64,000 nt of DNA from an uncultured Synergistota bacterium (GCA_964559865.1 CAZLJD010000025.1:771-64770), one strand, 5' to 3'; shown: positions 20,921 to 64,000, numbered from the stretch's first letter. A program made the numbers and translations. Notes: a model not told the origin generated them from the letters alone.

Positions 20921-20933
20921 AGGGGGTGAGAGT

Positions 20934-27303: not shown

Positions 27304-27342
27304 AGCATTTGGTAATATGATCTTTGGATGTTTTCATAAAGT

Positions 27343-27440: not shown

Positions 27441-27452
27441 GGTTTCTGGTAG

Positions 27453-27492: not shown

Positions 27493-27533
27493 ATCTAAGT
27501 TATTATTTAGTGTATGCTTAGGAGGTGTTTTAT

Positions 27534-44444: not shown

Positions 44445-44999
44445 TTGATATACGAGGCCATAGTTACTACAAAAATGAAGGAGAGGTTTAATATAGCACC
44501 AATGGGTGTAGAGTTTACTGCCGATGGCATGGTTGTTATATCTCCTTATACTACCTCTCACACTTATGTCAATCTCTTGCGAACGGGTGTGGCAGTGGTT
44601 AATTTTGTGGATAATGTTGAGATATTTGCACATGCTGTTGTTACAGATGAAGTTTTCCCTTGGTTTCCTGCAGCTACAGTAGATGGTTGGGTTTTAGAAG
44701 ATGCGTATATGTATCTCGAAGTTGGCGTAAAGATGGCAAGATTAGGTATGGAGAGGAGTAGTTTTTTTTGTGAGGTATTTTGTGATGTTAAGAAGAGGTA
44801 TCCCCGTATGTTCAATAGAGCGCAAGCATTGGTAGTAGAGGCTGCTATTCTTATCAGTAGGTTGAGTATGTATTCGAGGGAAGATATATTGAAATTTTTT
44901 AGGGAGAATGAGAGAGTGGTGTTTAAGACGGGTAGCTTGGTGGAAAGAAGGGCGTGGAAATATCTTAAGAGATTTCTGGAGGAAGGTGAAAGGGTGTGA
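44445..44999 (+). CDS. DUF447 family protein (methanopterin-cluster associated)
   Basis: IYEAIVTT...NIAPMGV, NRAQALVVEAAILISRL. Confidence 0.82.
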   Translation: MIYEAIVTTKMKERFNIAPMGVEFTADGMVVISPYTTSHTYVNLLRTGVAVVNFVDNVEIFAHAVVTDEVFPWFPAATVDGWVLEDAYMYLEVGVKMARLGMERSSFFCEVFCDVKKRYPRMFNRAQALVVEAAILISRLSMYSREDILKFFRENERVVFKTGSLVERRAWKYLKRFLEEGERV

Positions 45000-45940
45000 G
45001 GATAATTACGCCTTCGAGACTGCATTTTGGTTTCATTGACCCTGTGGGAAAGAGCGGAAGGATCTACGGCAGTATGGGTGTTGCTTTAAAGTATCCTGCT
45101 TGGGACCTTAGGTTTTCCCGTGCCGATCGTTTTGTGGTTGATCACCGTGATGATGAGGTTCGTAGGAAGGTTTTAGAAGTAGCAGATAGAGTAAAGGAGA
45201 TTTATGATGTGGATGTTAATCTGAGAGTAGAGATTGCATCAATGATACCTTTGCATAAGGGATTTGGCGCTGGTACACAGTTATCCTTGGCAATTGGTGA
45301 AGGTATGTTGAGGATACTTGGTTTACCTTGTGAAAGAGAGGATATCGTGAAGGTTAGCGGTAGAGGAAAGAGGTCAGGGGTAGGCATAGCTTCATACTTT
45401 GATGGGGGATTTAATTTGGATGTTGGCAGAAAGAGAGATGGTGAAGGTTTGCCATTGTCGGTTTTCCACTTTGGTTTCCCGAGAGATTGGGTGTTTTTAG
45501 TAGTGTTGCCCTCCCTGGATCTGAATATACACGGAGGTGTGGAAGATTCAAAGATAGTGCAGGTTGATGGTATGGGTGTAGAGGAAATCTGTATGCTTGT
45601 TCTTATGAAGCTGATTCCCTCTTTAATAGAGAGAGATATAGCCCTTTTTGGAGAATCGGTGACATTGATTCAGAGACTGGTTGGGAGAATGTTTTCGAAG
45701 CCTCAGGGAGGGGTATTTGCGCACCCTGTATGTGAAATGCTTATAGATTTCATGCTTCAAAGCGGTGCGTTTGGTGCAGGACAGAGTTCGTGGGGGCCCG
45801 TTGTGTATGGTTTGGTTAAGAGACAGGATGCCCTTGGTTTAAAGCGGAGGGTTGAGGAGCATTTACGTGCAGAGGATATTGCCGGAGATGTCTGGGTTGT
45901 TGAGGTTGACAATTATGGAAGAAAATTGGTAGGTGAGTAG
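44996..45940 (+). CDS. mptG: Beta-ribofuranosylaminobenzene 5'-phosphate synthase (GHMP superfamily), first step of methanopterin synthesis
   Basis: TPSRLHFG, HKGFGAGTQL, GRGKRSGVG, FDGGF, GQSSWGP. Confidence 0.9.
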   Translation: MRIITPSRLHFGFIDPVGKSGRIYGSMGVALKYPAWDLRFSRADRFVVDHRDDEVRRKVLEVADRVKEIYDVDVNLRVEIASMIPLHKGFGAGTQLSLAIGEGMLRILGLPCEREDIVKVSGRGKRSGVGIASYFDGGFNLDVGRKRDGEGLPLSVFHFGFPRDWVFLVVLPSLDLNIHGGVEDSKIVQVDGMGVEEICMLVLMKLIPSLIERDIALFGESVTLIQRLVGRMFSKPQGGVFAHPVCEMLIDFMLQSGAFGAGQSSWGPVVYGLVKRQDALGLKRRVEEHLRAEDIAGDVWVVEVDNYGRKLVGE

Positions 45941-47159
45941 TATGAGGATAACAGAAGAGATTGCTAAAGATGTGATTGATAGGATGTGCCCTGTTATAGG
46001 TAGGGATATAAGTATCACCGATGACAGGGGCATTGTGGTTGGTAGTAGCGATCCACAATGGGTTGGTAAGAGTTACAAAGAGGCTATTGCTACTATCCGT
46101 GAGGGCAAGGTGGTAGAGGTTGATACTGAAGACGGTGTTGGTGGAACTAACTTCCCGATATTCCTGGATGGCAAGGTTATTGGGGTGCTATGGATAACGG
46201 GCAGAGGCAGACATATAAGGGATATAGGAAGGATCACATCGGTTACGATAGAACTACTCTTACACAGGCGATTTATAGAGACTATTGGAAGTTTAAAAAC
46301 GCATGCCATGAGTAGCTTTGTTGGAAGTCTGTTGAAAAAGGATAGCCTTGACTGGGAAGATATAGCCTCTTACTTGAGTGTATTAGGGTATGATCCTTCT
46401 TTACCCAGATTTGCTGTTGCCCTTGGGATACCTAAGTATGGGACTGTAATAGGTAGTGCTATAGGTGTTATGCAGAAGAGTGTATCTGGTGGTATGGTAA
46501 GGTATGATGTTAGGGAGAAGGTCTTATCTACCTGCAAGAAGGTTCCTCAAATTGGTGAGCAGGATATAGTGACTGACATAAGTGGAGGGTTGTTTGCTAT
46601 CTTTAAGGTTGGAAGTACATGTGACTCTGAAGAGGAGGCAGAGAATAGAAAGATAGAGTGGAGTTTTGAACTCTCTTCTGTGTTAAAAGACGAGATAAAC
46701 GAAGATGTCTTTTTGGGTATAGGTCCTTGTGCACACTCCATTTCAATGCTGAAGAAGTCCTTTAGAGAGGCAGTTCGGGCACTGGAAGTAGGTGTTCTGC
46801 TCTCTGAGTTTGCTGGGAAAAAAGTTTTCTTCTATGATGAGCCGATAGTGCTTTTGGGAAACCTTATAAGGAGTTCTGGTGGAGATGAGAGGCGCAACTT
46901 TGCTTCTCATGTGCTTGGAAATATAGACCAGAGTAGGATGAGAAAGGAGATACTGCATACATTGAAGACCTATCTCAGTTGCGGGATGAATGCTTCTTCT
47001 GCTGCCAAGAAGCTCTTCATACACAAAAACACTCTGCTGTACAGGTTGGAACGTGTAAAAAATCTTACCAGCCTCGATCCACACGATCCAATAGATGCAT
47101 TTTATCTCTGGTTGGCCCTTCAAGTGGTCTCTGTTGATGGTGTGCTCCACGCACAATAA
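45933..47159 (+). CDS. CdaR/PucR family transcriptional regulator
   Basis: N-terminal sugar-diacid-recognition-like domain, central GGDEF-like domain, C-terminal HTH AAKKLFIHKNTLLYRLERV. Confidence 0.9.
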   Translation: MSSMRITEEIAKDVIDRMCPVIGRDISITDDRGIVVGSSDPQWVGKSYKEAIATIREGKVVEVDTEDGVGGTNFPIFLDGKVIGVLWITGRGRHIRDIGRITSVTIELLLHRRFIETIGSLKTHAMSSFVGSLLKKDSLDWEDIASYLSVLGYDPSLPRFAVALGIPKYGTVIGSAIGVMQKSVSGGMVRYDVREKVLSTCKKVPQIGEQDIVTDISGGLFAIFKVGSTCDSEEEAENRKIEWSFELSSVLKDEINEDVFLGIGPCAHSISMLKKSFREAVRALEVGVLLSEFAGKKVFFYDEPIVLLGNLIRSSGGDERRNFASHVLGNIDQSRMRKEILHTLKTYLSCGMNASSAAKKLFIHKNTLLYRLERVKNLTSLDPHDPIDAFYLWLALQVVSVDGVLHAQ

Positions 47160-47217
47160 GATTTAGATATTTTTGTATTGTGGCACAATTGATTTTGTGT
47201 GCTCCTTATGTTATCCT
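47141..47217 (+). promoter_or_regulatory. Promoter with clustered TGTG/CACAA operator-like motifs
   Basis: TTGATT(47189)-17 bp-TATCCT(47212) with TGn. Palindrome ATTGTGGCACAAT at 47177-47189 abuts the -35; TGTGCTCCACGCACAA at 47141. Confidence 0.55.
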
Positions 47218-47416
47218 CTTTGTGAAAAATAGCGTAGCTCTGTCTCTCTTAGCCTTCTTGAATTTGTCTGTAGTGGCTTTATAGCTTTGATGTTATAGTT
47301 CTTTGTGTAGGGAGGTGGTATTTCGGTAATTGGTTGTGTGCACAAGTAGTATAGTGCTACTTTTGTATCGGATAGTATTATTTTGAGGTGAGGAATTCTG
47401 GAGAGAAGGAGGGGTT

Positions 47417-49198
47417 TTGATGGAGAAGGAGATAATGGCTGCTGTTATGGCAGCGACGGCGGAGCCAGATTATATGACCAATGATAGGTTGGAGGCACTG
47501 GTAAAGGGACACGGTATGTTGAATTTAGCCACCATTGCGGCTGCGAATGTTATAACGGAAGAGATCCTTAGAGGGTTGGATTATAAGCTTAGTGATGCTA
47601 GCGTTTCTGAACTTCCCGTGGAGGATATAATGAAGAAGGCAATAGCTACAGCTAAGCTTGCTGGTGCTGATGGTGCTAATGCTGCTTTGATTGTGGCTTC
47701 TTTGATGTATATAGCAGGTACAGACGCGAGGGCGGGTGTCCCTGCGGGTAATAGGAAGATAGGTGCATTGGCGAGAATGATAGCGGGTGCAGATAGGGCA
47801 GGAGTAGCTGCAATACCTACACCGAAGCTCTCAAATAGAGTGTCGGGCTTTGCTGCTGTTAAGGCGCTTTATGAGGCAATGGAGGACGGTAGGCTTACCA
47901 GTATAGTTGGTAAGAAATTGCCTCCATTCCTTGCGGGTGGAGCTATTTATGGACATAATGTTTTGGGAGAAGATATTGTATTTCCGGAAATAGCAACTAA
48001 TGGTGCAAAGATAGCAACAGAGGCCATGATGAATGCTTATAGTGGTGCAGGCTTGCTGCCAAGTCCGTTTATATCCGCAGTGTTGGGTGCTGCTGCTACA
48101 ATGGAAATAGTTCACTCTGATGGTTTTATAGATGAAAAGTTAGGTGAATTCTTTATTGATACTACTTCTTATCTTGCTGGTAAATCTGCGGCTGAGACTG
48201 CTGGTCTGCCTGAGAAGATGAAGATAAGAGGAACGGATAGGGAGTTTGATACAGCGCACCTCATAGGAGATCTTGCGCTTTTGTTTAAGGATATAGGTGC
48301 ACCTACAGTTGTAGGTATGATGTCATTTAATGAGATTATGGCTGCCTTTGATAATGCGATATTCTATGGTGCAGGTTTCTCTGGGGGTCCAGTTAACCCA
48401 CCGTTGGGTCATGTGACATGTGACGCAGTTGTGGCGATGTGCTTGCTTATAGATAATAAGGGTGATATTGAGGCAGCAGCTGAAGTTATCAGAAAGATCA
48501 AGCAAGAGCAGTGGTTTGACCCTGAGATGGCAACGATCTCAGTGAATACGGTGGCAAGGAAGACGGAGCAGATTAAGAGAGGTCTTGTAACAGATACTCT
48601 GATATTTGCAAGTGAACCTACAAGGACTGCGGGCGTTGCAAAAAGGGCAGAAAGGGCTTATCAGATGCTCAAAGAGGGCAAACCGCTTGAGGAAGTTTCC
48701 AAAACCTTCGATGCAGAGAGGCAGGCGTTCGTCGAGAAGAAGGCTTCCGAGCTCTTGAGTGCTGTTATGGGTAAGAAGATAGAGATAAAGTTCTTGAAAC
48801 TTGCTGGTGCTGCAAGGAGAAGCCACCCGTTTGTAAAGCAATATTGGGGGTTCGATTCTGATATCGATATAGAGGTTAAGATAGATGGTAAGCCTTATAA
48901 GATAGAAGGACTTTCCCACAAGGCTTCTCCAGCCATTGCCAGAGGCGAGCTTTCTGAGGATTGGGCATTACCGATAGGTATTGCGGCTGGTGTAGCTCAG
49001 GAGTTACAGTACTCTGGCCACACCATAATAAATGTAACCATACCTGCTGCAGTTGCGGCTGCTATGGGTAAACATAATTGGAAGGATGCAGGTAAGCTGG
49101 CAGAAAACGGTGCTTACATTACTGGCGCTATTCCTGGTGCAAAGGATACCGCGCGTAAAGTTGCTAAGTTAGCTGCTGAAATTATGAAGGCTATGTGA
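47417..49198 (+). CDS. Uncharacterised 593-aa Ala/Gly-rich helical protein; candidate enzyme
   Basis: Long clean ORF with AAGGAGG RBS, own promoter and terminator; no family motif that I recognise. Confidence 0.9.
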   Translation: MMEKEIMAAVMAATAEPDYMTNDRLEALVKGHGMLNLATIAAANVITEEILRGLDYKLSDASVSELPVEDIMKKAIATAKLAGADGANAALIVASLMYIAGTDARAGVPAGNRKIGALARMIAGADRAGVAAIPTPKLSNRVSGFAAVKALYEAMEDGRLTSIVGKKLPPFLAGGAIYGHNVLGEDIVFPEIATNGAKIATEAMMNAYSGAGLLPSPFISAVLGAAATMEIVHSDGFIDEKLGEFFIDTTSYLAGKSAAETAGLPEKMKIRGTDREFDTAHLIGDLALLFKDIGAPTVVGMMSFNEIMAAFDNAIFYGAGFSGGPVNPPLGHVTCDAVVAMCLLIDNKGDIEAAAEVIRKIKQEQWFDPEMATISVNTVARKTEQIKRGLVTDTLIFASEPTRTAGVAKRAERAYQMLKEGKPLEEVSKTFDAERQAFVEKKASELLSAVMGKKIEIKFLKLAGAARRSHPFVKQYWGFDSDIDIEVKIDGKPYKIEGLSHKASPAIARGELSEDWALPIGIAAGVAQELQYSGHTIINVTIPAAVAAAMGKHNWKDAGKLAENGAYITGAIPGAKDTARKVAKLAAEIMKAM

Positions 49199-49206
49199 CT
49201 ACTTTG

Positions 49207-49243
49207 CAGGTAGGGGGTGTTTTCGCTCCCTACCTGTTTGTTT
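49207..49243 (+). terminator. Intrinsic terminator / stabilising hairpin after the 593-aa gene
   Basis: CAGGTAGGGGGTG-TTTT-CGCTCCCTACCTG followed by TTTGTTT. Confidence 0.8.
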
Positions 49244-49256
49244 GGGGGATTAGTAG

Positions 49257-49745: not shown

Positions 49746-49754
49746 ATATAAGAG

Positions 49755-49862
49755 ATGCATGGAGGTTCGTGGTTGCTGTCGCTTTACATCTTGGAGCAGA
49801 TAGGTTTTTGGTTAGCTGTTATCTTTTTTGTTAGGAGTAGGAGGAGAAGGGAGCAAAAGTGA
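49755..49862 (+). CDS. 35-aa single-TM putative symporter accessory peptide (not in ORF track)
   Basis: MHGGSWLLSLYILEQIGFWLAVIFFVRSRRRREQK*. TGA overlaps the symporter GTG. Confidence 0.6.
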   Translation: MHGGSWLLSLYILEQIGFWLAVIFFVRSRRRREQK

Positions 49863-51223
49863 TAGCTGTTACTGTATATCTCGGTTTTCTGTCCCTTATA
49901 GGTTTATGGAGACTTAAGAAACAGCAGACATTTGAAAATTTCTTCCTTTCTACGCAGAAGCTTGGCATGCTTGAAACATCTCTCACCTTGATGTCAACTT
50001 GGGTTGATTCTGCTATAATACTGGGTTTTAGTGGCTATTGCTACATGTTTGGCTACGATACGTTGTGGATAGCTATACCAACCTCTGTCGGTGTTTACAC
50101 CTTCTCCCTGTTCTTTGCTGCGAAAGTCAACAGGATAAGAAGAGGTTTTACGATTGGTGGTGTTATAGAGGAGGCATATGGAACGGGTGTATCTGTGGTT
50201 TCATCTCTATTCACGCTGTTGTATAGCATAACGCTAGTAGCAACGAATGTAATGGCTGCAGGGTATGTAATGCAAGTTATGGTAGGTGTGCCGTTTGTCG
50301 TGGGAGCTTTCCTGATTCTTGGAGTTGCAGTATTATATACGGTGGTAGGTGGGTTTAAAAAGGTTGTGGAGACTGACATAGCGCAGTTTTTCCTCTTGAT
50401 AGTGGGGTTGGGTGTGCTACTTTTGTTTGTATTGAAAGCTGTTGGGGGATTTGGTCATATCCAGAGAATGGCCTTTCGTTACCCAACAGCGTTTTCCGTA
50501 GGTGATGTGGCATCATTCTTTATAGTATTTACTTTCCCTTTTTGGGCAAATCCATCTTTTTATCAGAGATGTAATGCAGCAAAGTCACCTGATGTAGCGG
50601 TTGTTGGGGTTGCTACCGTTGGTTTGGTGGATTCTGTGATGACATTTGTGGCTCTGATCGTTGGGATTGCTGGAGTGATAATATTGGGGAGGGATGTAAT
50701 CCCTGATGCGGTCTTTCCTGGGGTAGTAAAGGCTGTTTTGCCTTGGGGGTTGAGAGACTTTGTAGGTTTGGCAATCCTGTCTGCTATAATGTCAACTGCG
50801 GATAGCTACCTGCTCATTGCTGGAGGGGTGATTGCTCATGATATATTGAAACCCATTAAGAGAGAAGTGATTGATGAACTTGTATATACAAGGGTTGGCA
50901 TAGTGCTTTCTGCAGCTGTTGCGTTGTTTGCAGCTATGATCTTCAAAAACATATTGGATGCTGCGATGTTTGCATTTTCCCTATTTGTTTCAAGCAATCT
51001 TATCCCACTTGTAGTGGCATTCTATGTAAAAGATGCGAAGCGTTTTGTTGCACCTTCGCTTGTTAGTATGTTAGGTGGCGGCTTAACGGTTGTGTTGTGG
51101 AAGATTTTTGATTGGGGTGATGTTTCCCTTTCCGTGATGTATGGACTTTTGGTATCCGGTATCTTGTGGTTACTATTGTACGGTTACAAAAGGGTTGTAA
51201 AGGGGCGTAGGTTGTATGGATAA
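49859..51223 (+). CDS. Sodium:solute symporter (SSS family)
   Basis: About 13 TMs, YTVVGGFKKVVETDIAQ, FYQR, SAIMSTADS. Confidence 0.92.
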   Translation: MIAVTVYLGFLSLIGLWRLKKQQTFENFFLSTQKLGMLETSLTLMSTWVDSAIILGFSGYCYMFGYDTLWIAIPTSVGVYTFSLFFAAKVNRIRRGFTIGGVIEEAYGTGVSVVSSLFTLLYSITLVATNVMAAGYVMQVMVGVPFVVGAFLILGVAVLYTVVGGFKKVVETDIAQFFLLIVGLGVLLLFVLKAVGGFGHIQRMAFRYPTAFSVGDVASFFIVFTFPFWANPSFYQRCNAAKSPDVAVVGVATVGLVDSVMTFVALIVGIAGVIILGRDVIPDAVFPGVVKAVLPWGLRDFVGLAILSAIMSTADSYLLIAGGVIAHDILKPIKREVIDELVYTRVGIVLSAAVALFAAMIFKNILDAAMFAFSLFVSSNLIPLVVAFYVKDAKRFVAPSLVSMLGGGLTVVLWKIFDWGDVSLSVMYGLLVSGILWLLLYGYKRVVKGRRLYG

Positions 51224-52004: not shown

Positions 52005-52326
52005 TGGGGAGAAGGTATGCTCCAAGATGTTTGGTATGGCTGCATTTTATCTCATTTACGAATGTGATAGTGGAAAACTAAAGCTAATTGAAAAAAAGGT
52101 CAACCCCTATGCGAAGGAGATGCCAAGAGGAAAGACCTTTTATGTAATAGAGGTGCTCCGTGATTGTGATGTCTATGTGGTTTCTAGTATAGGAGCAAGG
52201 GGGAGAAGGAGGGTTTTGGAGAAGGGGATAACTATCTATGATGTTGAAAAAGGAATAGATATAAGTATAGTGCTGAAACGTATAGAGCTGGAGCTTTGTG
52301 GTGGACATGCTGTTGGTAGGGTATAG
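51970..52326 (+). CDS. NifB/NifX family cofactor-binding protein (start approximate)
   Basis: KIAIPTDDG...FGMAAFYLIY, DCDVYVVSSIGARG. Confidence 0.78.
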   Translation: MIEIKIAIPTDDGEKVCSKMFGMAAFYLIYECDSGKLKLIEKKVNPYAKEMPRGKTFYVIEVLRDCDVYVVSSIGARGRRRVLEKGITIYDVEKGIDISIVLKRIELELCGGHAVGRV

Positions 52327-57532: not shown

Positions 57533-57536
57533 GAAG

Positions 57537-58349
57537 ATGGTTAGGTTAAAGCTAAAAGAAGAAATTAGTGTGCCTTTGGAGATCCCTGCTGCCAAACCGG
57601 ATGTGATAGTAAAGTGTTCTGGTATTTCAGAAGTAGAACGATTACCTGTATATTACGGTAACGAAACGGCCTTTTTAGGTGATTTTTTTGAGGTGACAGG
57701 GAGAGTAGAGGATGTTGTCTTTTTAGAAGGGGATCTGAAAAAGGTGAAGAGGATTGGTGAAAATATGTCCTTTGGTACTATTGAGGTGTATGGAGATGTT
57801 GGAATGCACCTCGCCAAGGGTATGCGTGGTGGTAAAGTTTTTGTGCATGGAAATGTTTCTGATTGGATGGCATCTGGTATGAGTGGTGGTATTATTAGAG
57901 TTGATGGTAATGTTGGCAACTTTGCTTGTGCATCATACTGGGGTGAGAGAAGAGGAGTAACTGGTGGAGTGGTATTTATAAATGGCTCTGTAGGTGACGA
58001 CCTTGGAAGGAGGATGAGGAGGGGCATTGTCCTTGTATCTGGTAGTGCTGGTAAGTTTGCTGGTTCTGAAGTGATTGCTGGCACGATCTTTATCATGGGT
58101 GAGGTAGGAGATGGGCTTGGGGCAGGTATGAAGAGGGGTAGTATAGTTTTGCGTCATCAACCGGAATTATTGCCTTCATTTTTGTATAGTGGTGAATTTA
58201 AGCCTTATTTCATTTCTGTTTATTTTCGTTACTTCGAAGATGTCTTTTCTTTTGAATTGTCGTCTGTGTTTGGAAAAGGCTATTTCAGGCGATATATGGG
58301 AGACTTTCTTTCTTTTGGTAAAGGAGAGATTCTTGTATGCTTAGATTGA
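57537..58349 (+). CDS. fwdC: Formylmethanofuran dehydrogenase subunit C
   Basis: GXGXXG beta-helix repeats (GXGMXGG, RRMRRG, GAGMKRG). Confidence 0.92.
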   Translation: MVRLKLKEEISVPLEIPAAKPDVIVKCSGISEVERLPVYYGNETAFLGDFFEVTGRVEDVVFLEGDLKKVKRIGENMSFGTIEVYGDVGMHLAKGMRGGKVFVHGNVSDWMASGMSGGIIRVDGNVGNFACASYWGERRGVTGGVVFINGSVGDDLGRRMRRGIVLVSGSAGKFAGSEVIAGTIFIMGEVGDGLGAGMKRGSIVLRHQPELLPSFLYSGEFKPYFISVYFRYFEDVFSFELSSVFGKGYFRRYMGDFLSFGKGEILVCLD

Positions 58350-59266
58350 ACGAAAGGGCTTGGGGTATCCTTTTAGATGTGGTTGAACATGCAGTTGATC
58401 TTCGGGTGAGGACATTTTACTCTAAAGGCGGTGCTATTTTGGTGGATGCGGGGATTGAGGCTGAAGGCTCTCTGAATGCTGGTATACTCATCTCTGAGAT
58501 GTTGCTTTCGGGTTTGGGAGATGTAAATGTCTTTTATGCGTCTGATTGGCTTAGTGTTCAGGTTTCTACAGATTTGCCTGTGGTTGCTTGTCTTGCCTCT
58601 CAGTATGCTGGGTGGAAGATCTCTTTGGGCAGTTTTTATGGCATGTGTTCCGGACCCGGTAGGCTCTTGGGGAGCAAAGAGGAGCTCTTTGATAGGTTTG
58701 GATGGTTGGAAGGTAGCACGAGGGCAGTATTGTTTATAGAGACATCTGATGTGCCTTCTCAGGAGGTAGTGGAGTATGTGTCCGATAGTTGCAAACTACA
58801 CGAGGACAGAATAGGTATAGTATTTTCGTCTTCTAATAGTCTTGTGGGTTCCATACAGGTGCCAGCGAGAGTGGTGGAGACAGGCATCCACAAGCTCATG
58901 GAGGTAGGTTATGATGTTTCAAAGATAAGATCAGCAGTGGGGTCTTCACCTATACCTCCTATAGGTGAGAGTGCTCTGGATGCTATAGGAAAATTGAATG
59001 ATGCTATCATATATGGAGGAAGGACGATATTCTATGTGGATGATGCAGACGACTTGTCAGATGTTATTAAGAAGATTCCTTCGAGTGCTTCTGCAAACTA
59101 TGGTTTACCGTTTTTGGAAATATTCGGGCGAAACAACAATGACTTTTACAGTATAGATCCCCTTTTGTTCAGCCCGGCTGAAGTCTCTATGATATCTCTT
59201 AGAACAGGTAGGCTCTACCGTGCTGGTAGAGTGAATGTTGAGATATTGGAGAACTCTTTCAGATGA
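58337..59266 (+). CDS. mch: Methenyl-H4MPT cyclohydrolase
   Basis: DAGIEAEGS, CLASQYAGW, SGPGR, NDAIIYGG, FYSIDPLLFSPA. Confidence 0.96.
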   Translation: MLRLNERAWGILLDVVEHAVDLRVRTFYSKGGAILVDAGIEAEGSLNAGILISEMLLSGLGDVNVFYASDWLSVQVSTDLPVVACLASQYAGWKISLGSFYGMCSGPGRLLGSKEELFDRFGWLEGSTRAVLFIETSDVPSQEVVEYVSDSCKLHEDRIGIVFSSSNSLVGSIQVPARVVETGIHKLMEVGYDVSKIRSAVGSSPIPPIGESALDAIGKLNDAIIYGGRTIFYVDDADDLSDVIKKIPSSASANYGLPFLEIFGRNNNDFYSIDPLLFSPAEVSMISLRTGRLYRAGRVNVEILENSFR

Positions 59267-60135
59267 GGCTTGGTATTGTGTCTACTGGTGCGGGATGGCA
59301 AGTGGAAGAGTTGAAAAGAGCTGCTGAGGATAGAGGATGGGATGTAGTTATGCTATCTCCCACAAGGTTTTCTGTTACCCTTCCTGAGATCGATCTAAGT
59401 ATTCAGGGGAGAACTGTTACTGATTGTGATGCAGTTCTTGTCCGTAGTGTGCCACTTGGCTCTTTGGAGCAGGTGGTGTTTAGGTTGGATGTGCTGTACG
59501 CATTAGAGAGTAGTGGCATTCCAGTTGTAAATAGGCCATTTACGATAGAAAGAACAGTGGACAAGTTTTACACCTCTGTGGTGCTTTCGGGTATCGGTTT
59601 GCCTACGCCGAAGACAGTGGTTGTTGAGAGACTTTCTGATGCGATGGAATACTTTGACCAGCTTGGTGGTGATGTGGTCGTCAAACCTGTTTTTGGTTCG
59701 AATGGGGTGGGGATAGTTAGAATAAGGGATAAAGATGAGGCCTACAGAGTGTTTAAGGGGTTTCAGCTTTTAAGGTATGTCTTCTACATGCAAGAGTTTG
59801 TGCCGCACGGAGATTATGATGTTAGGGTTTTTTGGGCAAATGGAGATGTGGTTTCTGCGATGAAACGCCTTTCAGGAGGGTGGAAGAATAACATACATCA
59901 AGGTGGCAAGCCCGAATACTATAGAGTGGATGACGAACTAAGAGCGGTGTGCGGCAAGATTGCAGAGGTATTCAAAGCAGATTACCTCGGTATAGACTTA
60001 TTATTTTCGGAAGATGGCAGGATGTATGTCATAGAGGTAAATGGTATCCCCGGATGGAGGGGCTTGCAGAGTATTACGGATGTGAATATAGCAGGTGAAA
60101 TATTGAGATGCATAGAGAAAAGAAAGCTTTTATAG
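59263..60135 (+). CDS. RimK-family ATP-grasp glutamate ligase (Orf5/MptN-like)
   Basis: VDKFYTS, KPVFGSNG, QEF, DVRV, EVNGIPGW. Confidence 0.88.
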   Translation: MRLGIVSTGAGWQVEELKRAAEDRGWDVVMLSPTRFSVTLPEIDLSIQGRTVTDCDAVLVRSVPLGSLEQVVFRLDVLYALESSGIPVVNRPFTIERTVDKFYTSVVLSGIGLPTPKTVVVERLSDAMEYFDQLGGDVVVKPVFGSNGVGIVRIRDKDEAYRVFKGFQLLRYVFYMQEFVPHGDYDVRVFWANGDVVSAMKRLSGGWKNNIHQGGKPEYYRVDDELRAVCGKIAEVFKADYLGIDLLFSEDGRMYVIEVNGIPGWRGLQSITDVNIAGEILRCIEKRKLL

Positions 60136-60965
60136 TGAAGTGTGCTCAGCTTGCGTGTTTGTACGAGGCAAGCTCTCCTAAACCGGGTAATGTGTATCCT
60201 TTTAAAGGTTTCCCTGAAATGAGCTTCGTGGATTTCGTTCTTGCTTCGGTGAACACTGGGATCACATTGTACGATGTGGATAAATTTGGTGTTGGAAAGC
60301 TCATATATAGATCATTAGAGAAAACATATCAGAATCTCAGTGTGAATGTTAATCTTGGTGTGGTTTTACTGATAGTTCCTTTGGCAAGGGCGTTTTGGAT
60401 AAAAGCTGATGAGGAGCCTTTGAGAGATGCTCTTTGTGAGGTTTTAAGCTCTTTGACCGTTGAGGATGCGGAGTGGGTGTATAGGGGCATAAGAATGGTT
60501 TCGCCTGGGGGTATAGGTGAATCTAAGAAAGCAGACGTTAGGAGCACTCCAGATATTACACTCAAGGAGGCTATGAAGATTGCGGAAAGCAGGGATTCGA
60601 TTGCGTATGAGTATGCTAATTGCTATAAGATGACATTTGGTTTTTTGTATCCCCGTTTGCTCAATAATAGACAGGATTTAGGCCTTCAGGATGCAGTAGT
60701 GCACACATTTTTAGAGTTGCTTTCAGAAGTGCCAGATTCGCTTATTGTGCGTAAATATGGTATGGATGTGGCGATGGATGTGGTTAATAGAGCTCGATCT
60801 ACTCTGGCTGCTGGTGGAATGCGGAGTGCCGAAGGTAGGAAAGCTGTCTTAGACTTGGATGATTACCTTCGTAGTGGTAGGAGAAAACTGAATCCGGGGA
60901 CATCTGCTGATCTTATAGCTTCGGCTTTAATGGTCTACTTTTTGGAAGGGAATTCTGTTACATAG
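60108..60965 (+). CDS. CitG-like triphosphoribosyl transferase (Orf7-like)
   Basis: EASSPKPGNV, NLGVVLL, DSLIVRKYG, NPGTSADL. Confidence 0.88.
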   Translation: MHREKKAFIVKCAQLACLYEASSPKPGNVYPFKGFPEMSFVDFVLASVNTGITLYDVDKFGVGKLIYRSLEKTYQNLSVNVNLGVVLLIVPLARAFWIKADEEPLRDALCEVLSSLTVEDAEWVYRGIRMVSPGGIGESKKADVRSTPDITLKEAMKIAESRDSIAYEYANCYKMTFGFLYPRLLNNRQDLGLQDAVVHTFLELLSEVPDSLIVRKYGMDVAMDVVNRARSTLAAGGMRSAEGRKAVLDLDDYLRSGRRKLNPGTSADLIASALMVYFLEGNSVT

Positions 60966-60980
60966 GGAGGGGGTGGTTGT

Positions 60981-62153
60981 TTGAAAGTGGCCTATTTGGA
61001 CTGTTCCTCAGGTGTTAGTGGAGATATGCTTTTGGGTGCCATAGTTGACGGTGGGGTGAGCATTGAGGTGTTGTTTGAGAAGCTTAAAACGCTTGGCATA
61101 GAATTTGAAATGAAGAGCAGGATTGTGTATAAGAATCATGTTAGGGCAACCAAAGTAGATGTTTCTTGGGATGAGGGACACCATCATCACAGACACTTTG
61201 GTGATATCAAGCGGATTATAGCTGATTCTTCGATTCCGAATAGTGTTAAGGAGAAATCCATTGAGATTTTTCGCACTATAGCAGAAGCAGAGGCAAAAGT
61301 TCATGGATGTTCCGTGGAAGAAGTGCACTTTCACGAGGTAGGTGCAGTAGATTCCATTGTAGATGTTGTGGGTTCTGTCTTGGGATTTGAGCTCCTTGGG
61401 GTAGAGGCGTTGTATGTGTCTGCTCTGAATGTGGGTAGTGGGAGGGTGAAGTGTGCGCATGGGGTGATGCCTGTGCCTGCACCTGCTACAAGTGAGATAC
61501 TTCAGGGATTGCCGATATATTCTGATGGCCAAGGTGAACTTGTTACTCCTACTGGTGCTGCCATTGTGAAGGTGCTGTCGAGCAAGTTTGGTAGCATACC
61601 TAATATAAAGCTTGAGAAGGTTTCTCTTGGAGCTGGCGGTAGGGATATACCTGAGTTTCCTAATGTTTTGCGGATGTTTTTGGGGGAATTGGATGCGGCT
61701 GAAGGTTACGATACGGATGAAGTAGTGATCCTTGAGACCGATGTAGATGATCTTACGCCGGAGATGGTGGGTAATCTCTATGACACGCTTCTTGATGCCG
61801 GGGCACTTGATGTAGTAGTTGTTCCGGTCTTTATGAAGAAGAACAGGACTGGTTTCAGGATTTCGGTTACGGTGGGAAATGATGCTGTGATGGAGATCCT
61901 TGGCAAACTCTTTGCTGAGACTACAACCTTTGGTGTGAGGGTTAGTAGAGTTAGAAGGTACAAACTTTTTAGAGAGGAAAGGATTGTGGAGACAAGCTGG
62001 GGTAGTGTGAAGGTGAAAGTTGGTAGTGTAGGTGATAAGGCCGTTACTGTGTCTCCTGAGTATGAATCTTGCAGAGAGGTTGCCTTGAAGAAAGGTGTGC
62101 CACTTAAGGATGTTTATAGGGAAGTTATAGGCAAGGTAGGAGAAAATATTTAG
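60981..62153 (+). CDS. larC: Nickel-pincer cofactor nickel insertase LarC (full length)
   Basis: DCSSGVSGDMLLGA, HHHHRH, HFHEVGAVDSIVD, PVPAPAT, TPTGAA, MKKNR, PEYE. Confidence 0.95.
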   Translation: MKVAYLDCSSGVSGDMLLGAIVDGGVSIEVLFEKLKTLGIEFEMKSRIVYKNHVRATKVDVSWDEGHHHHRHFGDIKRIIADSSIPNSVKEKSIEIFRTIAEAEAKVHGCSVEEVHFHEVGAVDSIVDVVGSVLGFELLGVEALYVSALNVGSGRVKCAHGVMPVPAPATSEILQGLPIYSDGQGELVTPTGAAIVKVLSSKFGSIPNIKLEKVSLGAGGRDIPEFPNVLRMFLGELDAAEGYDTDEVVILETDVDDLTPEMVGNLYDTLLDAGALDVVVVPVFMKKNRTGFRISVTVGNDAVMEILGKLFAETTTFGVRVSRVRRYKLFREERIVETSWGSVKVKVGSVGDKAVTVSPEYESCREVALKKGVPLKDVYREVIGKVGENI

Positions 62154-62172
62154 TATTAGGGGGGGATGTGTA

Positions 62173-63066
62173 ATGCCTAAGAAGGTTGTTTTTTTCTTGA
62201 GTAGTGACAAGTATGCAAGCCCATTTGATGTGCTTGTGCTTTACGATGGTGGGGCAGATGCGGTGGTTACATATGGGGATGTGTCTGTAGATGATGTGAG
62301 GAGCCTCGTGATGGATGCCATGTTCCCGCGGGGTCCCAAGGGGATAGGGGATACTACACTGTTTATAGGTGGCAAGGATGTAGCTAAGTGTGAGGAGATG
62401 CTGAAGGTGGCTAAAAAGACTATGTTTCCTCCGTTTGAGATTTCGGTTATCTTTGACCCGGCTGGTTCCTGCACGACTTCTGCTGCACTGGTTGCCAAAG
62501 TTGCTTACACGGTCAAAGAGAGGCTTGGGGGTACTCTTTCCGGTAGGAAAATTACGGTGTTGGCGGGTGCTGGGAATGTGGGTTCTCGTGCTGCTCATCT
62601 GTTTGCTAAGGAGGGAGCAGATGTTGTTATAGCAGATCTGGCTAATGATGTGGCCAAAAAAGTAGCAAGTGAGGTAAACGAGAAGGTGGGTTTGGGGAAG
62701 GTGAGCGTCTTCGAACTCGAAAGGTCTGATGATTCAGTTTATGAAGCGTGTAAAAATTCTGAGATTGTAGTATCCACTGCTCCTCCGGGTGTGAGAACGC
62801 TTTCTAAAGATGTCCTTGGTAAGCTTTCTGGTTGCAAGTTAGTGGCAGATATAAATGCTGTTCCACCAGAGGGTATAGAGGGGATGAAAGCAACTGCAGA
62901 TGGAGATGAGATAGCGAGCGGTGTCTTTTCTGTTGGGCCGCTGAGTATAGGTGTGGTGAAGTTGCAGGTTGAGTTGAAGTTGGTGGAGGAGGCAGTTTCT
63001 TCTCAGAAGGGTATATTTGGATATGAAGAGGCATATGAGCTTGCTAAAAAGGTGGTAGGTATCTGA
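62173..63066 (+). CDS. mtd: NAD(P)-dependent methylene-H4MPT dehydrogenase (MtdA/B/C family)
   Basis: SPFDV..YDGGAD, MFPRGP, IFDPAGSCTTSAA, DINAVPP.GIEG. Confidence 0.9.
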   Translation: MPKKVVFFLSSDKYASPFDVLVLYDGGADAVVTYGDVSVDDVRSLVMDAMFPRGPKGIGDTTLFIGGKDVAKCEEMLKVAKKTMFPPFEISVIFDPAGSCTTSAALVAKVAYTVKERLGGTLSGRKITVLAGAGNVGSRAAHLFAKEGADVVIADLANDVAKKVASEVNEKVGLGKVSVFELERSDDSVYEACKNSEIVVSTAPPGVRTLSKDVLGKLSGCKLVADINAVPPEGIEGMKATADGDEIASGVFSVGPLSIGVVKLQVELKLVEEAVSSQKGIFGYEEAYELAKKVVGI

Positions 63067-63966
63067 GTGGTGTTAGAAGATAAGTTTTCCGGGGCTCTCC
63101 TGGGATTTTCTGTTGGTGATGTTGTGGGGAGCCCCTACGAAGGTTTGAGTGCTTTTGATATTAAGGATAAGTGGAAGATAGGAGAAGGGAGTATAACGGA
63201 TGATACGGAGCTTATGCTTTCTACATCTGAAAGTTTAATAGAGTGTGGTTGTATAGACCCTGTTGATATGGCTAGGAGGCTTGTAGATTCCTTTGATGAA
63301 GGTAAGTTAAAAAGGATAGGCAGTAGAGTTAAGCACGCTATAGAGAACCTTAAAAGAGGGGTTTTACCTGCTAAAAGTGGAGCAAAGGGCCAGTGGGCAT
63401 CAGGGAGTGGTGGCATACTGAGATCGGTAGCGGTTGCGCTTTTTATGTTTGGATGTGATGAGAAAAAGGTGAAGAGTGGGATAAGATATACTGTTATGAT
63501 TACGCACAACAACGAAGATGCCATAGAAGGAGCATATGTCTTTTCTAAGATATTGCATCTCTTATTGAGAGGCGAGGATGTTCGCAGAGGCATCGAAAGA
63601 GTAGTTGAGGGAATACGGAGTGTTAGGCTAAAAGAGGAGATAAAGAGGCGGTTGGCTTTGTTGGAGACAGCATCGGAGCTTGTGGATGTTTTGCCGGGGA
63701 TTGGTGTAAAATCTGATGTTTATAGTGTTCTTGGAAATGCTATCTGCTGTTTTTTGAGACACTATACCTCTTTTGAAGATAGTATAAGGTGTTCTATTCT
63801 AATAGGTGGGGATACAGATACCACGGCAGCAGTTGTGGGAGCATTTTGGGGTGCTCTGAATGGTGCATCTAAAATTCCCCTTGAGTACAAGGTCGTTTTG
63901 GGAGATTTGGAAGAGCGCATTATCCAGATTGCCACTTCGCTTTATAAAAGGAGAATGTGTAGGTAA
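63067..63966 (+). CDS. ADP-ribosylglycohydrolase (ARH/DraG) family protein
   Basis: GDVVG.P.E, TDDT, GGDTDT.AAVVGA. Confidence 0.9.
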   Translation: MVLEDKFSGALLGFSVGDVVGSPYEGLSAFDIKDKWKIGEGSITDDTELMLSTSESLIECGCIDPVDMARRLVDSFDEGKLKRIGSRVKHAIENLKRGVLPAKSGAKGQWASGSGGILRSVAVALFMFGCDEKKVKSGIRYTVMITHNNEDAIEGAYVFSKILHLLLRGEDVRRGIERVVEGIRSVRLKEEIKRRLALLETASELVDVLPGIGVKSDVYSVLGNAICCFLRHYTSFEDSIRCSILIGGDTDTTAAVVGAFWGALNGASKIPLEYKVVLGDLEERIIQIATSLYKRRMCR

Positions 63967-64000
63967 TGAACAAGAGAGTAGTTTTGCTTACTGGTAGGTT
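63966..64000 (+). CDS. Partial gene, probably a dihydropteroate-synthase-like (DUF6513/Orf20) methanopterin protein
   Basis: Only MNKRVVLLTGR is visible; it resembles the 'LxVTGRLA' N-terminus. Start is coupled to the upstream stop. Confidence 0.4.
   Translation, partial: MNKRVVLLTGR

Follow-up and report, generated by a model that had tools for sequence, protein, structure and literature searches.

A conserved gene pair, a candidate nickel-pincer-dependent enzyme and a stand-alone LarC2-domain protein, in an H4MPT C1 operon of an uncultured Synergistota bacterium

Why do genes for the nickel-pincer nucleotide (NPN) lie within an H4MPT C1 operon of an uncultured Synergistota bacterium, together with a 593-aa ORF of no known family? 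The locus occupies the last part of the window, the 64,000-nucleotide stretch of DNA that was analysed. A sequence-only reading had described the run as one system that imports a solute, converts it in an NPN-dependent step and oxidizes the released C1 unit to CO2, and had noted that no pathway linking NPN to H4MPT was described; we found none in the published literature either. Comparison of each ORF with Pfam and NCBIfam models bore out the gene order that it had claimed: all 20 complete ORFs that it named were found, on the + strand and where it had placed them, and one ORF of the run, here called X593, had no family-model match.

44445..44999, +, DUF447 protein, 'orf5' type of H4MPT/methanofuran islands (Pfam DUF447_N and DUF447_C above cut-off; also in relatives L004, L020, L034, L038 and L048)
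44996..45940, +, beta-ribofuranosylaminobenzene 5'-phosphate synthase family, MptG-like, H4MPT biosynthesis (TIGR00144 155.5, cut-off 113.5; GHMP kinase domains present)
45933..47159, +, CdaR/PucR-type transcriptional regulator (Pfam Diacid_rec, GGDEF_2, HTH_30; NCBIfam CdaR model 108 bits, cut-off 612)
47160..47419, no strand, leader (257-nt gap), likely promoter/operator upstream of X593
47420..49198, +, X593, candidate nickel-pincer-dependent enzyme (conserved family)
49206..49237, +, hairpin, 14-bp stem directly 3' of the X593 stop codon
49257..49745, +, LarC2s, stand-alone LarC2-domain protein (NF052512 67, cut-off 50)
49755..49862, +, 35-aa single-TM ORF (mini-TM), translation MHGGSWLLSLYILEQIGFWLAVIFFVRSRRRREQK
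49859..51223, +, sodium:solute symporter family (SSS) transporter (Pfam SSF 2e-30)
51216..52004, +, LarB, pyridinium-3,5-biscarboxylic acid mononucleotide synthase (NF033503 equivalog 275, cut-off 175)
51958..52326, +, NifX-like (Nitro_FeMo-Co) small protein (Pfam PF02579)
52298..53386, +, ATP-grasp_3 ligase, 'orf1'/MfnD-like, methanofuran biosynthesis (Pfam ATP-grasp_3; weak MfnD match, 44 bits, cut-off 400; orf1 equated with mfnD, PMC5020050)
53379..53753, +, FwdD-like subunit (Pfam Molydop_binding; NF042908 111 bits, below cut-off 175)
53750..55027, +, formylmethanofuran dehydrogenase subunit B (FwdB), true W/Mo type (TIGR03129 554 bits)
55024..56655, +, formylmethanofuran dehydrogenase subunit A (FwdA), amidohydrolase (TIGR03121 661 bits)
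56648..57532, +, formylmethanofuran:H4MPT formyltransferase (Ftr) (TIGR03119 396, cut-off 293)
57537..58349, +, formylmethanofuran dehydrogenase subunit C (FwdC) (TIGR03122 232, cut-off 131)
58337..59266, +, methenyl-H4MPT cyclohydrolase (Mch) (TIGR03120 339, cut-off 229)
59263..60135, +, RimK-family alpha-L-glutamate ligase, MptN/'orfY'-like (TIGR00768 206, cut-off 143; MptN model 262, below cut-off 350)
60108..60965, +, CitG-like triphosphoribosyl transferase family, 'orf7' type (Pfam CitG 210 bits)
60981..62153, +, full-length LarC, CTP-dependent nickel insertase (TIGR00299 (LarC1) 222, cut-off 90; NF052512 (LarC2) 142, cut-off 50; E 1.5e-96 to the M. thermoacetica LarC structure 12BI)
62173..63066, +, NAD(P)-type methylene-H4MPT dehydrogenase, MtdA-like (Pfam Mpt_N)
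63067..63966, +, ADP-ribosylglycohydrolase (ARH) family (Pfam ADP_ribosyl_GH 191 bits)
63963..64000, +, DUF6513/pterin-binding 'orf9'-type gene, cut by the window end

Some boundaries moved. The 593-aa ORF is a gene, but its start is probably ATG 47420 (592 aa, as in its relatives) and not TTG 47417; the NifX-like gene is likewise present but probably has its true start downstream of 51958, given its length of 92 aa in L004, a 95%-identical relative. The mini-TM ORF was corrected to 49755–49862, its stop overlapping the symporter start. The partial last gene continues identically on contig L006 as a 447-aa DUF6513/PterinBD gene; afpA and an FAA-hydrolase gene come next and close the operon. 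Neither the window nor the sequence just beyond it contains larA, larE or fae, so the canonical larA just downstream that the sequence-only reading had considered as an explanation of larB and larC does not appear. The run is interrupted on both sides of X593: in the leader, TTGTGTGC / GCACAA half-sites recur and a strong ribosome-binding site (GGAGAGAAGGAGGGG) is present, with no Rfam family match, and the hairpin, whose stem has eight G-C pairs and is followed by TTGTTT, is a putative attenuator, partial terminator or mRNA stabiliser that leaves co-transcription of the whole run uncertain.

The X593 family is compact, isolated and under strong constraint. X593 is a soluble, mostly alpha-helical protein with no Pfam, NCBIfam or PDB sequence match, and a Foldseek comparison of its confident AlphaFold (AF2) model (pLDDT 83.8, pTM 0.88) with the PDB gave no structural neighbour. 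Searched exhaustively, 1.84 billion representative proteins yielded only the X593 family itself, of about 593 aa. X593 has more than 684 relatives, nearly all of 592–597 aa; identity is 53–60% among the 120 relatives listed, except for three close ones at 82–95%. Across 31 sequences 112 positions are invariant, including K30-G-H32-G, H180 and H332; K30 and H32 are candidates for a Lys/His tether, and no Cys is conserved. We found no published description of the family.

The conserved core of the locus is the pair of X593 and LarC2s. Of 80 genomes, 73 have LarC2s at most 400 nt downstream of X593 (archaea, 42 of 43 loci; bacteria, 31 of 37) and one has it upstream; at five of the remaining six loci the contig ends within 240 nt. 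Searching metagenomes in reverse, from LarC2s, we found X593 adjoining except at truncated or ordinary LarC-like loci, and one divergent X593 gene is followed by a full-length LarC. The linkage of the 593-aa gene to lar and H4MPT/methanofuran genes, proposed from this one locus, was seen in many other genomes. A juxtaposition by chance or mobile DNA, devoid of functional meaning, might be argued from the rearrangement of gene order between lineages and from one Methanotrichaceae genome in which X593-LarC sits as an insertion beside mcrA. However, the association recurs in dozens of genomes, several phyla and both domains, is confirmed from both partners and involves same-strand genes that overlap or are closely spaced. 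The arrangement, recurring in varied gene orders, is far beyond chance; the co-occurrence counts effectively refute this explanation, to which we assign almost no probability.

Other parts of the run belong to the window's own lineage. The symporter is confined to the window and three close relatives, L004, L005 and L007, and the mini-TM gene, the ARH gene (not found in other X593 loci) and the interleaving of larB and larC have the same distribution. The interleaving that the sequence-only reading had singled out is therefore real in the window but not a conserved trait, and the symporter, mini-TM and ARH genes, which it had counted as parts of one system, fall outside the conserved one; the symporter could equally well import nicotinate, a cofactor precursor, as a substrate. 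The regulator also varies, CdaR being confined to the window lineage and PocR occurring elsewhere (at locus L087, a PocR/HTH regulator stands where the window has its CdaR-type gene). Of 71 other loci, about 28 have a strong hairpin at the same place after X593, in different phyla and with no sequence conservation across loci. This suggests that X593 is expressed well above LarC2s, which fits an enzyme and its maturase.

Several features tie the pair to the pincer cofactor. LarC2s, whose best PDB match is the uncharacterised MK0293 (3C19), keeps the LarC2 hallmark residues (D8, K38-K39-G-R41, E65, G70, H78, K102 and E115) and forms a distinct subfamily with invariant D49 and T37; it is present in addition to full-length or LarC1-only LarC. 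In both domains of life larB, larC and sometimes larE flank the pair, as larE-larC-larB-larC1-X593-LarC2s in Synergistales, larE-larB-larC1-X593 in Desulfobacteraceae and X593-LarC2s-larB-larC-larE in Methanolobus bombayensis, and in Desulfoscipio the lar genes at the X593 locus are accompanied by a Nik-type ABC transporter. Counting against a pincer client, LarC2s is the sole lar gene within the retrieved flanks (up to 10 kb a side) at 53 of 80 genome loci, and neither the window nor the majority of X593 loci has larE. NifX-like, DUF134 and Mrp/ParA NTPase genes are recurrent neighbours (a NifX-like gene adjoins the pair in Methanobacterium too) and hint at another metallocofactor. X593 might thus bind some other metallocofactor or none, with LarC2s a generic nucleotide-binding partner and with larB/larC and H4MPT genes lying close by through shared regulation in anaerobes instead of shared function; radical SAM genes close by and the sugar PTS and aldolase context of the Halanaerobium locus would also suit this explanation. 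We consider it rather improbable, given that lar genes adjoin X593 in no fewer than six unrelated lineages, from both domains, and in four different gene orders, that LarC2s scores above the curated LarC2 cut-off with its signature residues kept, and that X593 has no conserved Cys to bind an Fe-S type cluster.

A further question is whether X593 is the client at all. X593 and LarC2s could together form a cofactor-processing machine in which X593 replaces LarC1, making or inserting a variant pincer cofactor (with another metal, or in dinucleotide form) that serves some other client, such as an AKR+Fer4 protein encoded inside the Methanosarcina X593 cluster, which could be the real pincer client. 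The order X593 then LarC2s mimics LarC1 then LarC2, with the hallmark residues kept; LarC2 is the CMPylating core and a docking platform for LarC1 (PMC13510736); a pincer variant with an adenine dinucleotide is already known; AKR+Fer4 genes are interleaved in four Methanosarcinales clusters; and metallochaperone-type neighbours (CobW, NifX-like, Mrp/ParA) recur. Nevertheless, a LarC1-only or full-length LarC is additionally present in many loci, no alternative client is consistent across lineages, Mtd and FwdB look canonical, and the post-X593 hairpin points to unequal expression, not what one would expect of a 1:1 complex. Identity of 50–60% across domains of life is also more typical of a catalytic enzyme and, to our knowledge, the methanogen H4MPT enzymes have been solved without a pincer-type cofactor. 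We regard this alternative as credible but unlikely.

The surrounding C1 genes indicate where a client could act. In bacteria, 21 of 37 loci have the pair next to, or at the head of, an mtd-fwdDBA-ftr-mch operon, and at most bacterial loci with C1 genes the pair leads directly into mtd-ATPgrasp-fwdDBA-ftr-fwdC-mch-mptN-citG; no annotated X593 locus contains fae. Two observations count against a C1 role: H4MPT genes are missing from the surroundings of nine bacterial loci whose flanks are ample (Halanaerobium, Acetomicrobium, Desulfovibrionaceae and several Thermoleophilia), and no archaeal locus has them adjacent to X593. FwdB of the window matches 5T5I_B and 8RJA_B at E 1e-130 and 6S6Y_B, presumably the methylotroph Fhc complex, only at 6e-11. 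With its N-terminal CxxCxxxC motif and SVCHGP Cys conserved, it is by sequence a canonical, genuine dehydrogenase-type subunit. The proposed oxidation through to CO2 is therefore plausible, because FwdB keeps its Fe-S cysteine motif and catalytic Cys; ferredoxin would be the putative electron acceptor for flux in that direction, and no FwdF/G-like gene is present. The MtdA-like dehydrogenase (E 1e-48 to 1LU9 and 6TGE) has an intact GAGNVG NAD(P) Rossmann motif. Because the other operon enzymes look ordinary, X593 is the only unexplained candidate client, and its position in the operon would place it at C1 entry.

The pair, which the sequence-only reading had overlooked as the core, is present also in many methanogens. 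A scan with two peptide patterns placed X593 in about 106 of 185,579 species genomes, restricted to taxa known or likely to use H4MPT and sporadic within them: in Methanosarcina, Methanobacterium and Methanobrevibacter, it is carried by some species but not by others. Its presence also differs between sister Methanotrichaceae genomes, one of which lacks it, which argues for an accessory catalytic function. A missing step of H4MPT or methanofuran biosynthesis, instead of catabolic entry, would suit the taxonomic restriction and the neighbouring mptG, DUF447, ATP-grasp, mptN, citG-like, DUF6513 and afpA genes. Such a step might be the unassigned reduction that opens the ribofuranosyl ring, to which hydride chemistry would be suited, or one that involves a hydroxy acid of the side chain. 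We nonetheless find such a role improbable: the distribution is sporadic, even between sister genomes; proteobacterial methylotrophs make the same cofactors, yet none of the retrieved X593 loci came from them; and a first gene after the regulator, followed by a hairpin, is a better fit to a highly expressed catabolic enzyme.

Taken together, we favour, with moderate confidence, a model in which X593 is a nickel-pincer-dependent enzyme with a new fold, a client of the LarB/LarC/LarE cofactor that works where C1 units enter the H4MPT pathway; X593 probably represents a novel type of nickel enzyme. LarB would carboxylate and hydrolyse NaAD, LarE, encoded elsewhere in the genome, would add sulfur, and LarC would insert nickel. 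The LarC2 domain binds CTP and CMPylates the cofactor precursor; LarC2s retains the residues that canonical LarC2 domains have in common, and we propose that it is a dedicated, low-abundance loader or activator that would install the cofactor, or a dinucleotide form, into X593. Holo-X593 would then perform a hydride-shuttling ('hidden redox') step on its substrate and hand a formaldehyde-level C1 unit to H4MPT, to be oxidized to CO2 by Mtd, Mch, Ftr and FwdABCD, with the remaining operon genes serving H4MPT and methanofuran synthesis. Cofactor binding by X593 is proposed from synteny alone; the holo-X593 step and the Mtd/Mch/Ftr/FwdABCD step are the only ones that rest on family assignments. 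The Synergistota lineage would additionally have gained the CdaR regulator, symporter, larB and larC, and in methanogens the pair would connect to the H4MPT pathway already in place. Two non-LarA pincer enzymes, an aldo-keto reductase (AKR, NphT) and an ornithine cyclodeaminase, both unrelated to X593, were found by comparable reasoning from gene neighbourhoods (PMC13524815). If the model is correct, X593 would be a fourth pincer-cofactor scaffold, unrelated to LarA, NphT or ornithine cyclodeaminase.

Among known systems, the methylotroph formaldehyde-oxidation islands (fae, mtdB, mch, fhcABCD and orf genes) share with the X593 operon an MtdA-like Mtd, Mch, Ftr, the Fwd/Fhc A–C subunits and biosynthesis genes of the mptG, orf5, orf7, orf9, orfY, orf1 and afpA types. 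By contrast, the X593 operon has no fae, its hosts are anaerobic, FwdB/FwdD are of the dehydrogenase type, with Fe-S and catalytic Cys motifs where FhcB is inactive, and X593-LarC2s stands at its head. [Fe]-hydrogenase (Hmd) uses FeGP, an organometallic, pyridine-derived nucleotide cofactor, for hydride chemistry on the H4MPT C1 carrier; the likeness is one of analogy only, with no homology or hcg genes, and with nickel proposed where Hmd has iron. LarC, the LarC1 + LarC2 cyclometallase, shares with LarC2s the LarC2 domain and its conserved KKGR, E, H and K signature, and the order of a large protein followed by LarC2 resembles larC1-larC2, although X593 is not homologous to LarC1. The AKR and ornithine cyclodeaminase enzymes, found through lar-gene adjacency, are non-LarA scaffolds as X593 would be, and show that unrelated folds can adopt pincer cofactors, with intermolecular hydride shuttling. 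They are recruits from NAD(P) enzyme superfamilies (TIM barrel and OCD/mu-crystallin), whereas X593 fits into no known superfamily and lacks an NAD(P)-type ancestry from which a substrate might be predicted. LarA, with LarB, LarC and LarE, has no sequence or fold similarity to X593 (two-domain alpha/beta as against mostly alpha-helical, 592 aa), and works in 2-hydroxy-acid metabolism and not in the context of H4MPT/methanofuran C1 metabolism and methanogens; X593 differs also in always having a stand-alone LarC2-type partner of its own. As with X593, however, the client gene clusters with larB, larC, sometimes larE, and nickel transport; by analogy, X593 would be expected to transfer hydride to a Ni-pincer pyridinium nucleotide, with its invariant Lys and His available as candidate tether and ligand.

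The region at 44445–64000 contains 20 complete ORFs and one cut-off ORF, all on the + strand and mostly overlapping or less than 20 nt apart. Gene assignments made in the sequence-only reading were borne out by Pfam and NCBIfam family models (for FwdD, by Pfam only), and its ORF calls needed small corrections, to the mini-TM ORF (49755–49862) and to the start of the protein that it gave as a 593-aa unknown, here X593, which most likely lies at ATG 47420 (592 aa). The operon opens with DUF447, a beta-RFAP synthase family (MptG-like) gene, a CdaR/PucR regulator, X593 and a stand-alone LarC2-domain protein (LarC2s). It continues with an SSS symporter, LarB, a NifX-like protein, an ATP-grasp_3 ligase, FwdD, FwdB, FwdA, Ftr, FwdC, Mch, a RimK/MptN-like ligase and a CitG-like protein, and then has a full-length LarC, an MtdA-like dehydrogenase, an ADP-ribosylglycohydrolase (ARH) and a DUF6513/pterin-binding gene of the 'orf9' type, cut by the window end.

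Features of the X593 operon
47420–49198, + strand: X593
49257–49745, + strand: LarC2s, NF052512 score 67 against a cut-off of 50
49755–49862, + strand: mini-TM ORF, corrected coordinates
51216–52004, + strand: LarB, NF033503 equivalog, 275 bits against a cut-off of 175
60981–62153, + strand: full-length LarC, TIGR00299 (LarC1) 222 against 90, NF052512 (LarC2) 142 against 50; E 1.5e-96 to the solved LarC structure 12BI

The H4MPT/methanofuran module for C1 oxidation is complete in the window (Mtd, Mch, Ftr and FwdA/B/C/D), and its enzymes are canonical. FwdA, FwdB, FwdC, Ftr and Mch score above their TIGR equivalog cut-offs and Mtd above Pfam Mpt_N; FwdD is above Pfam Molydop_binding and under the NCBIfam FwdD cut-off. 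FwdB is of the authentic dehydrogenase type, aligning at E 1e-130 to the tungsten enzyme structures 5T5I_B and 8RJA_B with the CPFCGxLCDD (Fe–S Cys) and SVCHGP (catalytic Cys) motifs kept, and more weakly (E 6e-11) to 6S6Y_B, which we take to be the methylotroph Fhc complex. In contrast to that hydrolase complex, the window's FwdB has the Fe–S Cys motif and the catalytic Cys, and FwdD is present. Neither FwdF/G-type electron-transfer (ferredoxin) subunits nor, among the operon's 20 genes, a family match to Fae was found, and Fae is absent from the annotated related loci too. A Mo/W-cofactor riboswitch (27333–27455, + strand, 85.5 bits) lies directly upstream of genes for a ModA/TupA-like binding protein, a permease and an ABC/TOBE ATPase (27525–30158); this arrangement fits the W/Mo demand of the FwdBD enzyme encoded 25 kb downstream.

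The window contains two of the genes for nickel-pincer cofactor assembly and no gene for LarA, the lactate racemase that is a client of this cofactor; each LarA-sized ORF falls in another family, and large ORFs elsewhere in the window code for flagellar, chemotaxis, transport and housekeeping proteins. On a contig with an identical ARH protein, the operon runs on through the DUF6513 gene, afpA and an FAA-hydrolase gene until a minus-strand pilin gene is met, so that larE, larA and fae do not occur just downstream (3.5 kb beyond the window). This removes the explanation by a canonical downstream larA that the sequence-only reading had set against its own proposal. The SGGxDS PP-loop motif of LarE is absent from every frame of the window; LarE is presumably encoded elsewhere in the genome, because it occurs in related loci. 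Mtd was considered as a hidden pincer client, which is unlikely because its Rossmann GxGxxG motif is intact and the NADP-dependent MtdA is a close relative.

Scanning 185,579 species genomes gave 106 X593 loci, and the best 80 of these were kept (43 archaeal and 37 bacterial). The archaeal loci are from Methanosarcina, Methanolobus, Methanococcoides, Methanomethylovorans, Methanohalobium, Methanobacterium and Methanobrevibacter, and the bacterial loci from Anaerolineae, Thermoleophilia and other Actinomycetota, Synergistota, Halanaerobium, Desulfobacterota and Clostridia (including Gracilibacter and Syntrophaceticus), with no proteobacterial methylotrophs among the 80. When locus content was scored by tblastn with the window's proteins, 42 of 43 archaeal and 31 of 37 bacterial loci had LarC2s downstream of X593 at a distance of at most 400 nt; one locus has it upstream, and five of the remaining six loci end within 240 nt of X593. 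In the reverse test, starting from LarC2s on metagenome contigs, X593 adjoins in essentially every locus with room for it, and the exceptions resemble ordinary split or full-length LarC. LarB or LarC was found in 27 of the best 80 loci, and larE, larB and larC all adjoin X593 in four (L088, L063, L040 and L091). H4MPT/methanofuran C1 genes are present in 21 of the 37 bacterial loci (18 of the 29 with at least 4 kb of flank), usually in the order X593-LarC2s-mtd-ATPgrasp-fwdDBA-ftr-fwdC-mch-mptN-citG; adjacent C1 genes are absent at nine well-flanked bacterial loci and at all archaeal loci.

Representative X593 loci
Methanolobus vulcani: X593-LarC2s-LarB-LarC
Desulfoscipio: Nik-type ABC transporter, LarC2s-LarB-LarC1-X593-mptG-afpA-DUF6513-DUF447-mtd-...
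Synergistales MAG (L088): larE-larC-larB-larC1-X593-LarC2s-mtd-...-afpA-DUF6513-DUF447/mptG
L087, a retrieved contig: PocR regulator, then X593-LarC2s-mtd-...-citG
L091, a retrieved contig: LarE-LarC2 fusion, LarB and LarC1 upstream of the X593-LarC2s pair
Desulfobacteraceae MAG and Methanolobus bombayensis: LarE-like genes adjacent to the X593 cluster

We conclude that the conserved system is the X593–LarC2s pair with lar genes, plus the C1 module in bacteria. Juxtaposition by chance, the other case that had been held against a functional link, would leave these parts unlinked in other genomes; they are linked in many, and we regard it as hardly credible. Comparative genomics thus supports the proposed connection of nickel-pincer genes, X593 and the H4MPT module. 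Mean identity within X593 is 67–68% inside each domain of life and 51% between domains, which indicates that the family is old in both rather than recently exchanged. Only the window and loci L004, L005 and L007, its close relatives, have the symporter, mini-TM gene, CdaR regulator and ARH or carry larB and larC within the C1 operon; substrate import, which the symporter had suggested, finds no support as a general feature. Locus L007, at 95% identity, places the bacterium of the window in Synergistota.

Searches of Pfam, NCBIfam and PDB sequences with X593 itself gave no match. Its relatives number more than 684, and every one that bears a functional name is labelled hypothetical; the 120 listed are 53–60% identical to it, except for three close ones at 82–95%, and nearly all are 592–597 aa long. 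An alignment of 31 sequences has 112 invariant positions, including K30-G-H32-G, H180, H332 and several Gly/Pro-rich loops, and no conserved cysteine. The AlphaFold2 model is confident (pLDDT 83.8, pTM 0.88) and mostly helical, and its comparison by Foldseek with 350,542 PDB chains gave nothing better than E 0.05 or TM 0.17. When 1.84 billion representative proteins were searched exhaustively by HMM, only the family itself came up, in 231 clusters (about 15 full length, the remainder fragments). Because these searches are empty beyond the family and the invariants are many, X593 forms a family that stands alone, is under strong constraint and has a fold not yet described. The four low-confidence stretches of the model are the invariant loops, in which K30-G-H32-G, H180 and H332 are located; such loops would be expected of a site that orders around a cofactor, and K30, H32, H180 and H332 are candidates only for a lysine thioamide tether and histidine nickel ligands. 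That X593 instead has an unrelated cofactor or function is improbable in our judgement. In the window it is clustered with larB and larC with no larA nearby, the lar-gene adjacency used to recognize pincer clients (as in PMC13524815).

Two other ideas about the protein were discarded. The spacing of the four low-confidence invariant loops, about 150 aa apart, had raised the possibility of an internal repeat, and hhalign of the quarters gave no signal. A membrane protein, an idea that came from transporter-like Foldseek noise and an Ala/Gly-rich composition, is contradicted by the lack of any hydrophobic window reaching the transmembrane threshold.

LarC2s passes the curated LarC2 model, and its nearest solved relative is the uncharacterised M. 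kandleri MK0293 (PDB 3C19). It retains the residues of canonical LarC2 domains (D8, K38-K39-G-R41, E65, G70, H78, K102 and E115), has an invariant D49 of its own and, by these signature residues, is a predicted CTP binder. In the 2026 cryo-EM study of LarC (PMC13510736), LarC2 makes up the core that binds CTP and CMPylates the thiocarboxylated pyridinium mononucleotide, after which nickel is inserted by LarC1. LarC2s may also serve as the LarC2 half where LarC consists of LarC1 alone, as it does in many X593 loci. LarC2s is nevertheless tied specifically to X593, because loci with a full-length LarC or Ni_insertion-family gene (the window, Methanosarcinales and L088) or with the LarE–LarC2 fusion (L091) still carry it.

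A role of X593 in cofactor processing is one that we consider rather unlikely; a role as a LarE substitute was rejected, because X593 has no conserved cysteine and LarE stands beside it in four loci. On a Methanotrichaceae contig (L089, 5605–13078), mcrBDGA is followed directly by a divergent, 615-aa X593 and then by a full-length LarC. A sister genome (L141) has identical flanks and neither gene, so the pair is an accessory island, its adjacency to the operon for methyl-coenzyme M reductase is incidental and a functional tie to that enzyme was rejected. This presence/absence difference and the sporadic distribution of X593 favour an accessory role in catalysis over one in core cofactor synthesis. 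They likewise speak against X593 acting in H4MPT or methanofuran biosynthesis, a reading that its place among cofactor-biosynthesis genes might invite and that we think quite improbable.

The most economical reading is that X593 is a client of the pincer cofactor, with LarC2s as its dedicated loader or activator. Caution comes from the loci that lack adjacent C1 genes, from the NifX-like, DUF134, Mrp/ParA and CobW genes that recur near X593 and from the AKR+Fer4 gene of Methanosarcina clusters (see below), which could be another client. Judged on sequence and gene context, it is an evenly balanced call whether X593 depends on the pincer cofactor and has a functional tie to the C1 pathway; that it acts specifically at the C1 entry of the H4MPT pathway is a tentative suggestion. 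In bacteria, its step would deliver C1 units to that pathway, possibly by shuttling hydride so that an organic substrate releases a formaldehyde-level unit, or alternatively through hydride chemistry directly on methenyl- or methylene-H4MPT. A new-fold nickel-pincer enzyme for a novel reaction by which C1 units enter (or leave) the H4MPT pool is a possible, somewhat doubtful description of X593; its position in the pathway and the direction of flux are inferred. If true, this would be a new anaerobic C1 route common to fermentative or syntrophic bacteria and several methanogen orders, and possibly a new class of methanogenic substrate. Should X593 feed C1 units into H4MPT, carbon-flow models for anaerobic digesters, sediments and guts would change, and biochemistry would gain a new organometallic reaction.

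Expression signals were found around X593. Its 257-nt leader, between the CdaR gene and X593, contains repeated TTGTGTGC/GCACAA half-sites, including a TTGTGTGCACAA palindrome (47140–47205 and 47334–47346), which could be a candidate operator of the adjacent CdaR regulator. No Rfam match to a riboswitch was found in the leader, and a promoter scan gave 40 matches against 36 expected. A hairpin with a 14-bp stem follows the X593 stop codon, and about 28 of 71 other loci, which belong to several phyla, have a hairpin of similar strength there, with no conservation of sequence; this would suggest differential expression, with X593 abundant and the downstream products scarcer.

Several X593 loci have further neighbours of interest. 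In a Halanaerobium MAG (L037, 7179–9482), X593–LarC2s follows PTS EIIC (galactitol/ascorbate type) and class II aldolase/epimerase genes, with H4MPT genes absent within 10 kb; this context may hint at a sugar-derived substrate. In Methanobacterium and Synergistota, genes for NifX-like (Nitro_FeMo-Co), DUF134 and radical SAM proteins, a cation-efflux/NifX fusion and Mrp/ParA-type NTPases recur beside the pair, and CobW genes likewise recur near X593 loci. Interleaved in Methanosarcinales X593-LarC2s-LarB-LarC clusters is a gene for an aldo-keto reductase with a C-terminal 4Fe-4S domain (AKR+Fer4; 399 aa), which could be a second pincer client, because AKR pincer enzymes are newly described, or a redox partner. 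On L091 (4101–7799), the LarE–LarC2 fusion (402 aa) adjoins genes for glycine/proline reductase and for a member of the ornithine cyclodeaminase family, and could also serve the pincer-dinucleotide cyclodeaminase reported recently.

Neighbouring genes in retrieved loci
L035 12983–16739, L027 12403–12795, L028 3939–5750 and L071 8873–9727: NifX-like/DUF134/radical SAM/NTPase neighbours
L045 7661–8851, L073 13464–14660, L001 7979–9178 and L031 16756–17949: AKR+Fer4 genes

Elsewhere in the window, a flagellar export and chemotaxis block (1–13100; FlhA, FlhF, MinD-like, CheB, CheA and FapA) is unrelated to X593, and a TPP riboswitch (20773–20885, + strand) precedes ThiT/YuaJ thiamine transporter and cytosine/purine-type permease genes (20880–23123). 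The + strand GC skew is unusually strong across 1–64000 (0.2–0.4 in 2-kb windows), dipping only at minus-strand genes; nearly all genes are co-oriented.

We know of no role or entry enzyme for the H4MPT/methanofuran clusters of anaerobic Chloroflexota, Synergistota, Bacillota, Actinomycetota and Desulfobacterota, in whose operons X593 is the conserved first gene. The 'orf20/orf21' genes of methylotroph H4MPT islands, considered as possible lar homologues, probably belong to different families. H4MPT/methanofuran genes have been described in Synergistetes, Firmicutes, Chloroflexi, Actinomycetes and Deltaproteobacteria, which retain fwdD and afp and in which their roles may stay elusive in novel, uncultivated species (Chistoserdova 2016, PMC5020050). 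No paper came up in literature searches that connects H4MPT or methanogens with lar genes or with the pincer cofactor, and the link between nickel-pincer genes, X593 and H4MPT appears undescribed so far. Many prokaryotes make the cofactor without LarA, as has been known since 2014–15. To our knowledge, the alternative clients described so far fall into just two families, each recruited from an NAD(P) enzyme superfamily. One is NphT, a member of the aldo-keto-reductase superfamily; the other is an ornithine cyclodeaminase whose cofactor is an adenine-dinucleotide variant. Both were discovered through lar-gene adjacency (PMC13524815). X593 belongs to neither: it has no PF00248 match, and its largely helical model has no TIM-barrel neighbour. 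Nor is it a LarA (DUF2088, COG3875), with no sequence or fold match to the LarA N- or C-terminal domains. If a client, X593 would be a third alternative to LarA, one without known ancestry. Pincer-cofactor clients accompanied by maturation genes are already known as a kind of system; what is new here is the client's fold, the obligate partner of LarC2 type and the metabolic context.
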